Positions 1,021 through 14,306 of a DNA stretch of 64,000 bases are shown one piece after another (the first letter of the stretch is position 1; every line of letters begins with the position of its first letter). The translations under genes were made by a program, and so were the position numbers. The notes below the pieces were generated by a model. The model did no database searches and was not told the origin of the DNA. It saw only the letters and a program-made list of their open reading frames with translations. The stretch spans positions 27,014 through 91,013 of the forward strand of contig JALSNW010000025.1 in the NCBI GenBank assembly GCA_026986785.1. The letters run 5' to 3'. The DNA is from Deltaproteobacteria bacterium (GTDB lineage Bacteria; Desulfobacterota; Dissulfuribacteria; Dissulfuribacterales; QOAL01).

Positions 1021-2577
1021 CTATTTGCTTGCCATGTATTCATGTAGGCGTGTGTTGTGGAGCCCATGTCCTTTTTGTATAGAGGCCTCATAGAGATACA
1101 TGTTTCCAAACTGACCAATGAGTGAGAAGTCAGGGACGATGCCAACGCTGGCCAAGGGGTATCGGCCAAGAATACGATCCTGGGAAGAGGTGTCTGAGAC
1201 AATGATATAACGGACAAAATGTTGGGGTGCTGCCAGGATCATCTCGAACTCGTATTCATAGGGCAGGATAAATTTTTTTGGCTCTTGAGTCATGAAGACC
1301 AGGGGGTAATTCGAGGTATCATCCATGAGGATGTGATCTTGGGATCGTATCCTGTCCAGTAGTCTCCTATATGGTGTGAGATTGCCATGTTTCCTCTCCC
1401 CTGTGAGAACCTGGCAGAAGAGCTGCTCTTCTGAGCCATTGTGGCTGCAAGGGAGCCAAAAGCTCATTACCAGGGAAATGGCCATTGTCAAGGTGAAGAT
1501 GCCCTTGAAAAGGGAATCCCCCATCTGTTCACGGCAATAGATGCGGATGGATACTGCTGTTGCCACAAAGAGGAGCAACAGGTCCTGGTTCATGGCAGTG
1601 GAAGTTGTCATGTAGTGGGCCAGGAGAAAGACCATGGGGGTCAGAAATACAGGTAGTGCCATGTCTTTTTTGGGTCTGTCCTGGGGTGCGAATATCCAGA
1701 TACCTGTCAGGACATAGGGCAGCAAGATGGGCATATTCTGTGTGAAAAAGTGTATTGTTGCCTTTATGCCTGCTTCAAGGTCTCGTGGCTGGAGGTCGAG
1801 GCTGGAGATCGAAGAGGTGGTATCCGTCAAGGCATTCCAGTGGGTGAGAAAGTAGAGCGGATCTCCGAGAAAGACCCAGTTTAGATAGCACCATGAAAGA
1901 GAGATGAAGATCACGGGAAACAGGCTGGTCAAGAGTACGGCAAGGCCTTTTAGGGGATGACGCCTTCCGTATTTTGCAGCAAGCACGATTCCAAACATGG
2001 GTACTACGGCAACTGCTTGGAATTTCGTCAGAAAAAGAAAGGCCGACAATAGGCCAAACAGAAAGAGATCGTAAGAGATCTCCTGCTCACTGTATTTGAA
2101 GAGGTGATAGTAGGACAAGAGCAAGAGTCCCATGAGGATGCCATCTGGGAGTTGCTGGGCAAAAAGAAATAGGGACAGCGGGGACAGAAGCAGGTAACAA
2201 AGGAGGACAGAGAAAAGGGGCATGGAGATATATCTCTTTGTCAGTCCTCTATATAGGCTGAGCATAGCAACTGTTATCATCATCCCGCCCACGAAGGCCG
2301 TGGCCACGAAGGGATTGTTGGCCAGCAGGACGAAGAAGTGGGGAAAAGGTGGTGAGCTAAACCCCATATTTTCAAGGCGGGGTGGTTTGCCATCATGCAC
2401 AAGGAGGGCCTTTTCGCCAAGATATAAAAGGCATCTCGAGGCAAAGTCGTGTTCATAGAGAAAGAGATTGAGCATAGTCAGCCCACAGCCCACGAGCAAC
2501 ACCATGAGGGAGAGCAGGGCATATCTTCTGAGTGCTTTGCTCGATATGGGGTTAGGTCTTGATCTTGCTGATCCCAT
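1021..2577 (-). CDS. polytopic membrane protein, GT-C/ArnT-PMT-like architecture with C-terminal soluble domain; last gene of the EPS operon
   Basis: 518 aa, with roughly a dozen hydrophobic segments followed by a ~140-aa non-hydrophobic tail. The start overlaps the synthase stop by 26 nt. Confidence 0.4.
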   Translation of the reverse strand: MGSARSRPNPISSKALRRYALLSLMVLLVGCGLTMLNLFLYEHDFASRCLLYLGEKALLVHDGKPPRLENMGFSSPPFPHFFVLLANNPFVATAFVGGMMITVAMLSLYRGLTKRYISMPLFSVLLCYLLLSPLSLFLFAQQLPDGILMGLLLLSYYHLFKYSEQEISYDLFLFGLLSAFLFLTKFQAVAVVPMFGIVLAAKYGRRHPLKGLAVLLTSLFPVIFISLSWCYLNWVFLGDPLYFLTHWNALTDTTSSISSLDLQPRDLEAGIKATIHFFTQNMPILLPYVLTGIWIFAPQDRPKKDMALPVFLTPMVFLLAHYMTTSTAMNQDLLLLFVATAVSIRIYCREQMGDSLFKGIFTLTMAISLVMSFWLPCSHNGSEEQLFCQVLTGERKHGNLTPYRRLLDRIRSQDHILMDDTSNYPLVFMTQEPKKFILPYEYEFEMILAAPQHFVRYIIVSDTSSQDRILGRYPLASVGIVPDFSLIGQFGNMYLYEASIQKGHGLHNTRLHEYMASK

Positions 2578-12572: not shown

Positions 12573-14306
12573 TCACAGCCAACTACTTAGGATCTCCGCG
12601 GCAGGAGCAGGTCTGGAAAATAGGAAACCTTGATAGAACATCCGGCCTTTCTGCGACAGAAAGTGCATTTGATCTTCAGTCTCCACCCCTTCAGCCACCA
12701 ATTTGAGTCCAAGGGTCTGGGCCATTGCCACTATGGCATCCACTATGGCAGCACTTTGTGTATCGCCAGGAAGATCCTTTATGAATGCCCTGTCTATCTT
12801 GATTTCGGAAATAGGTAATTTTGTAAGATATGAAAGAGAAGAATATCCAGTACCAAAATCATCGATAGAAAATCTTATGCCAGTTTCTGAAAGCTGTTGC
12901 ATCTTTACAGCGACCTCACTTACATCCTTTACGAGGAGTCCTTCCGTGACCTCGAGGATGAGCCTGTGGCCGGTGATATCATGTCTATTTATGCAATTCA
13001 AGACTTCAGAGACAAATTCGGGACGATAGAACTGTTTGGGGCTGATATTGACAGAGAGGGAGAAATTTTTGCCTTCATGCTTTTTAAGCAGGTTACAGAC
13101 CTCTTCTAGCATCCAGTTGCCCAATTTTACAATCAGGTCACTCTCTTCGGCTATGGGTATGAATATCACTGGCGAAAGCAGCCCCCTGGAAGGATGCTCC
13201 CAGCGTACCAGGGCCTCTGCCCCTGTGAATAGGACATTTTCATCGACCTGGGCCTGTAGGAACATTCTTAGCTCCTTTCGGCCAATGGCAGAAGAAAGAT
13301 CCTTCTCTATGCTGTATCTTTCCTTGATCTCGCGCTCCATCTGGGCATCGTGGATGATCGTCCTGTTACCGCCACTTGCCTTCGCCCTTCCAAGGGCGGT
13401 ATCGGCTCGTCTCATGAATTCCTCTGCCTGACCTGGGATATCCGGTGTAACAGGACATGCCCCTATGCTGACTGTAAGGCTGATGCCATTATCTATGGGA
13501 AAGGGTTCATGCATGGCAGTGTGGATCAAAGAAGTCTGGGAGATGAGAAAATCCGAGACCCCATCTGAGAAGACGTCTGTTTCTTGCTCCATAGGGATGA
13601 AGACCCCAAATTCATCTGCTGTTATTCGTGCAACAATAGTATTGTCGTCAAATAGAGCTTTCAGCCTGGCACCAAAATAATTCAGCAATAGATCTCCAAG
13701 GTCCAGCCCCTTGGCCTGATTTATCAGTTTGAATCTGTCTATATTGACCAGCATCAGGGTACCCACCCCTTTGTTCGCAATGAATTGTTCGACCTTTTCC
13801 GTAAAAGAGACCCTATTGGGCAGGCCCGTGGTCTGATCGTAATGGGCAATGAAATCTGCCAAGCGATTTGCATTTTGTGTTGCCCTGATAAGTTCCTGGT
13901 TGAGGCTAATGAGTCTATGACCAACATCGATGCGCGCCTTGAGTTCTCCTGGATCGAATGGCTTTGGGACAAAATCATCTGCCCCTGTATCAAGGGCCGA
14001 GATAACATCTTCCTTATTGCTTCTGGATGTGAGCATTATAATATAATGATTCAGCTCGGCATGGTTTTTCCGTATGTTTTTTACAACGTCAATACCATCC
14101 ATTCCAGGCATTAGCCAGTCGAGGAGTACCACTTTGGGGGTCTTGCTGTTTCGTAGGACTCTTAGTGCAGAACAGCCGTCTCTTACATTTTGAGGTTCAT
14201 ATCCCCACTTCTTCAGGATGGATACGAGGAGTAGAGATGTTACAGGGTCATCTTCTGCGACGACGATCCCATTTTTATGATCTTGTTCCATTCCGGGCTC
14301 CATCAC
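12573..14306 (-). CDS. response regulator REC-GGDEF(degenerate TADEF)-EAL, probable c-di-GMP phosphodiesterase
   Basis: 577 aa. REC motif LLDWLMPGMDG. The GGDEF position reads TADEF (13608-13622). The EAL domain motifs are intact: EALVRW, DDFGTGYSS, KIDRAF, EGVET. Confidence 0.9.
   Translation of the reverse strand: MMEPGMEQDHKNGIVVAEDDPVTSLLLVSILKKWGYEPQNVRDGCSALRVLRNSKTPKVVLLDWLMPGMDGIDVVKNIRKNHAELNHYIIMLTSRSNKEDVISALDTGADDFVPKPFDPGELKARIDVGHRLISLNQELIRATQNANRLADFIAHYDQTTGLPNRVSFTEKVEQFIANKGVGTLMLVNIDRFKLINQAKGLDLGDLLLNYFGARLKALFDDNTIVARITADEFGVFIPMEQETDVFSDGVSDFLISQTSLIHTAMHEPFPIDNGISLTVSIGACPVTPDIPGQAEEFMRRADTALGRAKASGGNRTIIHDAQMEREIKERYSIEKDLSSAIGRKELRMFLQAQVDENVLFTGAEALVRWEHPSRGLLSPVIFIPIAEESDLIVKLGNWMLEEVCNLLKKHEGKNFSLSVNISPKQFYRPEFVSEVLNCINRHDITGHRLILEVTEGLLVKDVSEVAVKMQQLSETGIRFSIDDFGTGYSSLSYLTKLPISEIKIDRAFIKDLPGDTQSAAIVDAIVAMAQTLGLKLVAEGVETEDQMHFLSQKGRMFYQGFLFSRPAPAAEILSSWL

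Follow-up and report, generated by a model that had tools for sequence, protein, structure and literature searches.

A Probable Xag/Sfz-Type Exopolysaccharide Cluster Preceded by Predicted Phosphorelay and c-di-GMP Phosphodiesterase Genes

Organization of the Gene Array

A stretch of 64,000 nucleotides from Deltaproteobacteria bacterium (assembly GCA_026986785.1, contig JALSNW010000025.1, positions 27,014 to 91,013; referred to here as the 64-kb window) was analyzed for an array of seven genes that combines signaling proteins with a putative synthase-dependent exopolysaccharide (EPS) machinery. An earlier note on this DNA, made from the sequence alone, had placed the seven genes on the minus strand between positions 1021 and 14306, and all seven open reading frames (ORFs) were confirmed. 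In the direction of transcription they encode a response regulator with the architecture REC-GGDEF*-EAL, where the asterisk marks a degenerate domain (12573-14306, 577 aa; 572 aa in the public gene call), a hybrid sensor histidine kinase (8843-12568, 1241 aa), a GH5-like hydrolase with a twin-arginine translocation (Tat) signal (7387-8811, 474 aa), a BcsB-like subunit (5241-7346, 701 aa), a small outer-membrane beta-barrel (4404-5234, 276 aa), a synthase composed of an MshEN domain and a GT2 glycosyltransferase (2552-4441, 629 aa), and a membrane protein of the GT-C fold (1021-2577, 518 aa). The junctions reported for this series were reproduced exactly. The kinase gene starts 4 nt past the stop codon of the response regulator gene, the following gaps measure 31, 40, and 6 nt, and the last two junctions are overlaps of 38 and 26 nt. 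Such spacing is ordinary for bacterial operons and leaves nothing to be accounted for by chance. For the synthase, the likeliest start is the ATG at 4429, located five bases after the Shine-Dalgarno sequence GGAGGAGG. It is also the start in the public record (625 aa) and most likely the true one, and it shortens the overlap with the barrel gene to 26 nt instead of 38 nt.

The array ends downstream at a convergent plus-strand ORF (630-977). Upstream it is bordered by a divergent DEAD-box helicase gene (14740-16095), separated from the response regulator gene by 433 nt (14307-14739). This region is the sole long non-coding stretch upstream of the array and is therefore the likely site of its main promoter. 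A scan for the sigma-70 consensus returned nothing above shuffle expectation. Overall, the promoter scan yielded 14 candidates against 17.8 expected by shuffling, and no terminator-like hairpin was detected in any of the junctions of the array. Because these counts lie at or below shuffle expectation, they are uninformative on operon structure. No RNA family was found in an Rfam scan of the window, and hence no riboswitch control was detected. The seven genes may form a single transcript.

The Polysaccharide Proteins and Their Family

The earlier note had divided the array into three layers, namely a sensor phosphorelay, a REC-GGDEF*-EAL output protein, and an MshEN-GT2 synthase with its partners. 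This division was borne out by hidden Markov model (HMM) searches and two confident structure models. Among the five polysaccharide proteins, MshEN/GT2, BcsB, and PMT_2 were matched by HMM, and the hydrolase matched PF26410 in precomputed annotation. Pfam assigned an N-terminal MshEN domain and membrane GT2 families to the synthase. The MshEN domain consists of two 24-residue motifs (Q19-Q42 and R48-H71) joined by the 5-residue linker KEKGG, and the protein scored 57 bits with NF053729, a model of the MshE-related cyclic di-GMP (c-di-GMP) motif with a cut-off of 38. The motifs DAED, TED, and QRSRW are present, and the TED and QxxRW signatures as well as the C-terminal transmembrane bundle are invariant across the family. 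Among solved structures, the catalytic part is closest to BcsA (E 2e-11) and the N-terminal domain to PilF/MshE. No PilZ domain was matched in the synthase with Pfam or NCBIfam models, and the protein ends approximately 10 residues past its last transmembrane region. NF053729 was also passed by XagB of Xanthomonas, by Sfz2 of Mariprofundus ferrooxydans PV-1, and by members from Actinoplanes and Thermotogae. By analogy with NfrB, the one characterized GT2 activated through MshEN (PMC8669469), the MshEN domain of the synthase would bind c-di-GMP with an activating effect.

The BcsB-like protein scored 40.1 bits with the Pfam BcsB model (cut-off 21) and carries an N-terminal signal or anchor and a C-terminal transmembrane anchor (residues 676-694). 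A profile of its family matched Escherichia coli BcsB (6yg8) with an E value of 1.3e-15 over profile positions 5-515. A search of the PDB with the single sequence returned nothing, and the family profile alone reached BcsB. The 276-aa barrel protein had no Pfam match. Its AlphaFold2 model (pLDDT 88.7) shows a signal helix followed by an all-beta structure, with the COG4313 channel 4rl8 (TM score 0.71) and FapF as the top Foldseek matches, and the protein is a candidate export pore. The GT-C-fold protein, a polytopic membrane protein with a C-terminal periplasmic domain, scored 29.8 bits with Pfam PMT_2 (cut-off 26.1). Its AlphaFold2 model (pLDDT 86.6, pTM 0.87) matched ArnT (5f15) first in Foldseek, followed by STT3, ALG12, ALG9, Pmt4, PglB, and AftB, and residue E55 is nearly invariant among close relatives. 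In a library of 1.84 billion proteins, its family forms 1,663 clusters at 50% identity (E <= 1e-3). The link of the 701-, 276-, and 518-aa proteins to polysaccharide machinery, as expected in the earlier note, was upheld by the BcsB profile, the barrel model, and the GT-C model, respectively. PADLOC returned no defense-system match for the five polysaccharide proteins.

To place the proteins among named systems, blastp comparisons were made with the Sfz1-5 sequences from the supplementary information of PMC8250860. The synthase aligned over its full length with Sfz2 of M. ferrooxydans (43% identity, E 8e-154). Specific best matches were obtained for the BcsB-like protein with Sfz1 (E 2e-8), for the GT-C-fold protein with Sfz3 (E 4e-7), and for the barrel with Sfz5 (E 4e-4). 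The genes for these four homologues lie contiguously at 1021-7346. Compared with the two Xanthomonas loci L070 and L072, the synthase showed 44-45% identity over residues 3-626. A profile built from the 276-aa barrel recruited the ORFs directly upstream of XagB (L070:8927-9949, L072:8949-9974), and the GT-C profile recruited those directly downstream of the synthase (L070:11817-13175, L072:11841-13061), so that by these profiles the order of Xanthomonas xagABCD reads barrel, synthase, GT-C, GH113. Iterated profiles likewise picked up Sfz1, Sfz3, and Sfz5 among the ORFs of PV-1, and several synthase homologues carry the JGI label "glycosyltransferase XagB." The nearest named homologues of the window proteins were found in Desulfobulbaceae and Desulfobacterium metagenome-assembled genomes (MAGs). 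Exact-protein look-ups also placed the window in assembly GCA_054020195.1, contig JBPMVJ010000015.1. Judged by sequence, the polysaccharide core is a member of the Xag/Sfz family with an Sfz-type BcsB-like subunit and a different hydrolase. The earlier note had called the machine atypical, with a subunit set unlike the canonical ones. The set does differ from Bcs, Pel, Pga, Alg, and Nfr, but the polysaccharide core has already been described under the names xagABCD and sfz/sfb.

The xagABCD genes are known from Xanthomonas campestris and X. oryzae pv. oryzicola (Tao et al. 2010, as cited in PMC3528676 and PMC3609779). They direct the synthesis of an uncharacterized biofilm polysaccharide, with Clp and the DSF pathway acting as repressors and ManA as an opponent (PMC3528676, PMC3609779). 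Both clusters contain the barrel, the MshEN-GT2 synthase, and the GT-C protein in the same order together with a periplasmic hydrolase of clan GH-A. The output of the Xag system is responsive to c-di-GMP. Three of the four Xag gene types (XagA, XagB, and XagC) occur in the window, and an XagD-type GH113 gene is absent; a GH113-family profile matched none of the window proteins. The Xag cluster is without a BcsB-like gene, whereas the window has one, and the GH113 enzyme XagD stands in place of a GH5-like hydrolase. The known control by c-di-GMP is transcriptional in Xag, via Clp and DSF/RpfG, whereas in the window a kinase and a phosphodiesterase are encoded in the operon itself.

A BcsB-like gene together with xagB-, xagC-, and xagD-like genes was proposed to act in stalk formation of iron oxidizers (PMC4643136), and the cluster was later named sfz1-6 or sfb1-4 in Zetaproteobacteria and Ferriphaselus (Koeksoy 2021, PMC8250860; Kato 2015, PMC4643136). 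In these papers Sfz3 and Sfz5 are listed as "unknown," and the N-terminal domain of Sfz2 is taken as a secretion-ATPase domain. Four of the five polysaccharide proteins of the window have specific homologues in Sfz1, Sfz2, Sfz3, and Sfz5, and four of six Sfz gene types were found in total; no homologues of Sfz4 (GH113) or Sfz6 (SH3 and CotH) were detected by tblastn in the 64-kb window. The gene order sfz1-2-3-4-5 contrasts with hydrolase, BcsB-like, barrel, synthase, GT-C in the window. Sfz4 is a GH113 enzyme, whereas the hydrolase of the window is not, and the sfz cluster is without a kinase or phosphodiesterase. The hosts of sfz are stalk-forming Fe(II) oxidizers, whereas that of the window is no known iron oxidizer.

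The Bcs system shares with the window a processive membrane GT2 with TED and QxxRW motifs, a BcsB-family subunit with a C-terminal anchor helix, a periplasmic hydrolase, and gating by c-di-GMP, which is predicted for the window. However, the receptor is a C-terminal PilZ domain in Bcs, and the putative receptor here is an N-terminal MshEN domain. The 276-aa barrel takes the place of BcsC, which combines tetratricopeptide repeats (TPR) with a 16-strand porin, the hydrolase BcsZ belongs to GH8 instead of being GH5-like, the window has an additional GT-C-fold partner, and the substrate probably differs. No Pfam or NCBIfam match for BcsC or GH8 BcsZ was found in the cluster. In the NfrB-NfrA-YbcH system of E. 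coli, which contains the only characterized GT2 synthase under MshEN control (PMC8669469, PMC8669472), the synthase is controlled locally by a dedicated c-di-GMP enzyme, as is proposed for the window. In NfrB, however, the GT2 precedes the MshEN domain, which is the reverse of the order in the window. The partners of Nfr are YbcH and NfrA, the latter with TPR and a large barrel, and its dedicated enzyme is the cyclase DgcJ, whereas that of the window would be a phosphodiesterase. NCBIfam models of NfrA or YbcH matched nothing in the cluster, and the NfrB model aligned to the synthase through the MshEN part only (39 bits, cut-off 1170).

The distribution of the family was examined by scanning species-representative genomes with the synthase alignment, which gave at least 80 loci, and by iterating profiles over the ORFs of 80. 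According to the record titles, the loci stem from well over ten phyla, monoderms included. They comprise Thermotogae, Aquificota, several Chloroflexi classes, Actinomycetota, cyanobacteria, Firmicutes, Synergistaceae, Gemmatimonadetes, Bacteroidetes, Acidobacteriaceae, Chthoniobacterales, Atrimonadaceae, and four proteobacterial classes, and the set includes M. ferrooxydans PV-1 and two Xanthomonas genomes. Conservation was counted in the 50 loci that extend 4.5 kb or more to each side, a feature being scored when it lay within 4.5 kb of the synthase. A GT-C partner was present in 43 loci, a BcsB-like gene in 34, a barrel in 18, and a GH113 or GH5-like hydrolase in 11. Two-component genes were seen in 18 loci and GGDEF/EAL genes in 4. 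Aquificota, Synergistaceae, Ignavibacterium, and Pedobacter are among those that share the order BcsB-like, barrel, synthase, GT-C with the window.

Several members depart from the form found in the window. The Sfz2 of PV-1 (L057:9980-12031) contains the MshE-related c-di-GMP motif twice (109.6 bits over two stretches), and its N terminus is approximately 50 residues longer than that of the window synthase. Several synthase ORFs of Chloroflexi extend much farther at the N terminus than the 629-aa form, with approximately 1000-1300 aa in L053, L069, and L080. Two or three tandem GT-C paralogues occur in some Chloroflexi and Gemmatimonadota loci (L065, L080, L018, L033). A synthase homologue with 56% identity (P0070) is labeled "Candidatus Bathyarchaeia archaeon" by NCBI, which stems either from horizontal transfer to an archaeon or from misbinning. 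The two-component cases belong mostly to Mucilaginibacter. In every species of this genus and related Bacteroidota, the BcsB-like gene is directly preceded by a gene for a histidine kinase of approximately 450 aa (L038, L040, L045, L049, L052, L054-L056, L058, L060, L061, L063, L064, L067, L068, L073, and L077, at approximately 6400-7850 in each). The Pedobacter synthase (L029:9911-11872) fails the MshE-related c-di-GMP motif model, and the Bacteroidota lineage may have swapped c-di-GMP gating for two-component control.

Hydrolase and Polymer Chemistry

The hydrolase is assigned to PF26410 (GH5_mannosidase) in precomputed annotation, as are its relatives. With the local copy of Pfam no significant match was obtained (Cellulase, E 0.039), and the outcome evidently differs between the two Pfam versions. 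Its PDB matches, 11 in number and all weak (best E 0.0012), are without exception GH5 beta-mannanases, and the NEP motif aligned to their acid/base position. The twin-arginine motif and GEMGW are kept in six of six homologues and NEPRG in five of six. The enzyme was also considered as an orthologue of the GH113 proteins Sfz4 and XagD, both of which match Pfam GH113. This assignment was rejected, as no significant similarity was found by blastp or profile and the common ground is the clan GH-A type only.

Mannan-active enzymes of different families accompany the cluster elsewhere. A GH113 gene lies beside it in 13 of the 80 scanned loci, including the two Xanthomonas genomes and PV-1, and a GH5 mannanase- or mannosidase-like enzyme occurs in the window, three close relatives, and two cyanobacteria. 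In the relative L086, whose synthase is 69% identical, a divergent GH26 gene (L086:3880-4977) is found where the window has the GH5-like gene, which looks like a non-orthologous replacement of the hydrolase. In a census of 115 dereplicated immediate neighbors, from which six very long ORFs were left out, the ManC-type mannose-1-phosphate guanylyltransferase/isomerase was the sole recurrent sugar-nucleotide enzyme (4 of 115). A motif search located ManC-type genes in five loci from several phyla. These bifunctional GDP-mannose enzymes are encoded directly beside the cluster (L012:551-1654, L016:5789-7192, L019:7490-8932, L036:5281-6705, and L047:6132-7667) in Ca. Nitricultor, two Synergistaceae, Nitrospirillum, and a Pseudomonadota MAG. 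The secreted beta-1,4-mannanase ManA disperses the xag-dependent biofilm (PMC3528676), and a phosphomannose isomerase gene is conserved beside sfz (PMC8250860). Five independent associations, namely those with GH113, GH5-like, and GH26 enzymes, with GDP-mannose genes, and in these two published links, suggest a polymer of the beta-mannan type. By association, the polymer is probably mannose-based, either a beta-mannan or a glucomannan, and a glucan product is the main rival on this point.

Signaling Genes, Mechanism, and Alternatives

The response regulator scored 89.9, 91.1, and 225.2 bits with the Pfam models Response_reg, GGDEF, and EAL, respectively. Its REC domain has the acceptor D63 (LLDWLMPGMDG) and the T and K partners, and the GGDEF site is degenerate (TADEF). 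The EAL signatures are complete (EALVR, VNIS, EVTE, DDFGTGYS, KID, EGVE, QGF), and the protein is predicted to be a phosphorylation-controlled c-di-GMP phosphodiesterase. The Pfam domains of the kinase are Cache-like, PAS repeats, HisKA, HATPase, REC, and Hpt. The Cache-like domain, which would be periplasmic, lies between two transmembrane helices (residues 6-24 and 299-317), and its dCache_1 score of 40.4 bits falls under the Pfam cut-off of 45. The H-box HEIRTP at 731, the Hpt motif HSLKGS at 1183, and the REC acceptor Asp are all intact. A phmmer search of all ORFs in the 64-kb window found no other GGDEF, EAL, REC, or kinase-core proteins. Given the degenerate GGDEF domain and the lack of a diguanylate cyclase in the window, the cluster encodes only the breakdown of c-di-GMP, which has to come from elsewhere, and its description in the earlier note as a self-contained local c-di-GMP circuit was overstated.

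Five relatives (L083 and L085-L088) were obtained from exact-protein look-ups, as no close Desulfobacterota relatives were among the 80 scanned loci. L083 has the same seven genes in the same order and on the same strand, with a synthase of 84% identity and 61-74% identity in the other proteins, and this preserved arrangement was counted for a coupling to signaling. In L085 (synthase 72%) the contig ends approximately 820 bp upstream of the five-gene module, so that this locus has no bearing on the signaling pair. L088, from a Thermodesulforhabdaceae genome (synthase 61%), is flanked by EAL-CBS-GGDEF, chemoreceptor, and PAS-GGDEF genes. The survey for co-occurrence that the earlier note had suggested thus bore out the gene set in part. 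The core of GT-C protein and synthase proved widespread, but the kinase and phosphodiesterase were found in L083 and not in L086 or L087. The pair is therefore specific to a lineage and no conserved part of the machine, and the pairing of the module with c-di-GMP or two-component genes across relatives is recurrent but variable.

Taken together, we consider it probable that the locus encodes an Xag/Sfz-type synthase-dependent EPS system with a dedicated phosphorelay and c-di-GMP phosphodiesterase in front, in what is probably a Desulfobacterota MAG. Homology and gene order suggest the following mechanism, including the pairing of kinase and response regulator, the direction of the phosphodiesterase effect, and the role of the GT-C protein. 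c-di-GMP from elsewhere would bind the MshEN domain and render the synthase active, as in NfrB (PMC8669469). The synthase and its BcsB-like partner would extrude the chain into the periplasm, where the growing chain is probably modified or passed on by the almost obligatory GT-C-fold partner via a polyprenyl-phosphate sugar. The chain would then exit through, or be helped by, the small XagA/Sfz5-type barrel, and the Tat-exported GH5 mannanase-like enzyme would trim or release the polymer. The Cache/PAS hybrid kinase would pass phosphate along the route H-D-H(pt) to the REC domain of the response regulator. The EAL domain of that protein would then lower c-di-GMP near the synthase and turn polymer production off.

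A number of observations weigh against this proposal. In the synthase, MshEN motif I begins with Gln19 instead of the usual Arg or Lys, which could weaken binding. The barrel, at 276 aa, is smaller than known polysaccharide porins. In the first periplasmic loop of 79 GT-C family members, which aligns poorly, no acidic residue is strictly conserved, and the catalytic competence of the GT-C protein is accordingly unproven. The argument for mannan is wholly one of association. The remaining points concern the coupling. L086 has the four-gene core and the divergent GH26 gene but no signaling genes, and L087 (synthase 66%) has the five-gene module alone, from which it follows that the polysaccharide module can be expressed on its own. 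GGDEF/EAL genes show no clear enrichment near the synthase, and a promoter-like hexamer pair with a TG extension is located at 8881-8854, within the 3'-terminal part of the kinase gene and shortly before the hydrolase gene. Kinase and phosphodiesterase could accordingly be mere neighbors, with a separate promoter near the end of the kinase coding sequence driving the five polysaccharide genes and the phosphodiesterase serving the global c-di-GMP pool or other targets. The kinase-hydrolase gap of 103 nt in L083, the one relative that keeps the pair, compared with 31 nt in the window, also fits such an arrangement. An alignment of the 180 nt that precede the hydrolase gene in four relatives showed no recognizable conserved promoter element. 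We regard independence of the two parts as rather doubtful, since order and strand are kept in L083 at a protein identity of only 61-74%, the gaps of 4 and 31 nt contain no terminator-like hairpin, the promoter scan stayed below shuffle expectation, and the putative receptor domain of the synthase would be an obvious local target of the phosphodiesterase.

Two further alternatives concern the machine itself. The cluster could encode a divergent synthase of cellulose or another beta-glucan, a Bcs variant in which MshEN replaces PilZ. Among solved structures, BcsA is the closest homologue of the catalytic domain, the cluster includes a true BcsB homologue, and the top-scoring curated synthase model in NCBIfam is CelA, which also counts against the proposal made above. 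In addition, the GH5 family mixes cellulases and mannanases. CelA, however, scores 64.8 bits where its cut-off is 699, and PilZ, BcsC, and GH8 BcsZ are not matched by Pfam or NCBIfam. The PDB matches of the hydrolase are mannanases throughout, relatives swap in GH113 or GH26, both mannan-active, and the flanks recur with GDP-mannose genes and not with UDP-glucose genes. A glucan-producing Bcs variant therefore appears unlikely. GT2 and GT-C proteins could also form a lipid-carrier glycosylation pair of the GtrB/Gtr or ArnC/ArnT type, in which the GT2 loads a sugar on undecaprenyl phosphate, the GT-C protein transfers it to an envelope acceptor, and no free polymer is made. This reading draws on the pairing of GT2 and GT-C as the most conserved feature of the family, on ArnT as the closest match to the GT-C model, and on PMT_2 as the Pfam match. 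We consider it very improbable, because the family-invariant TED, QxxRW, and C-terminal transmembrane bundle are those of processive channel-forming synthases and the alignment with BcsA runs through the QxxRW region. Moreover, the synthase comes with a BcsB-like subunit, an outer-membrane barrel, and a hydrolase that cleaves polymers, and the Xanthomonas cluster is needed for the biofilm matrix (PMC3609779, PMC3528676).

Outside the array, no Pfam match was found for two plus-strand ORFs of 642 aa (17062-18990) and 115 aa (the convergent ORF at 630-977), and a minus-strand ORF of 224 aa (16115-16789) is SprA-related. A flagellar gene block on the opposite strand, approximately 5 kb beyond the cluster (19235-27573), includes genes for an FlgG-like rod protein, the P-ring protein FlgI, and the hook-associated protein FlgK, and on this basis the source organism is probably motile. 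In L083 a type III CRISPR-Cas block with Cas6 and the Cas10 palm domain lies approximately 7 kb downstream (L083:19092-21878); the genome of the window has Dus and arginase genes at the matching place.

The locus is no new kind of machine. It is a clean and complete representative of a system known under two names, xag in plant pathogens and sfz/sfb in iron oxidizers, and it varies from the known system in the family of its hydrolase and in its built-in phosphorelay and phosphodiesterase. A 2015 paper lists the xagABC operon without a known c-di-GMP receptor (PMC4624772). That XagB passes the MshE-type motif model, that XagC/Sfz3 has a GT-C fold, that XagA/Sfz5 is a small barrel, and that the hydrolases all belong to mannan-active families seem not to have been stated in the xag and sfz literature; our literature search was incomplete, and these points may be published elsewhere. 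We put forward tentatively, as a possibility more than a likelihood, that Xag/Sfz, of which this locus is a well-preserved example from a diderm, is a distinct and very widespread synthase-dependent EPS pathway, with a universal core of an MshEN-gated GT2 and a GT-C protein, a polymer of the beta-mannan type, XagB/Sfz2 as the c-di-GMP receptor of xag, and a captured, phosphorelay-driven phosphodiesterase as the off switch in this lineage. We know of no characterized bacterial synthase system that makes a beta-mannan-type polymer. If the proposal is true, a mannan-type pathway would join the short list of synthase-dependent bacterial exopolysaccharides, and the post-translational action of c-di-GMP on xag would be explained. 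The operon-encoded kinase and phosphodiesterase are a candidate for local c-di-GMP signaling by degradation instead of synthesis.

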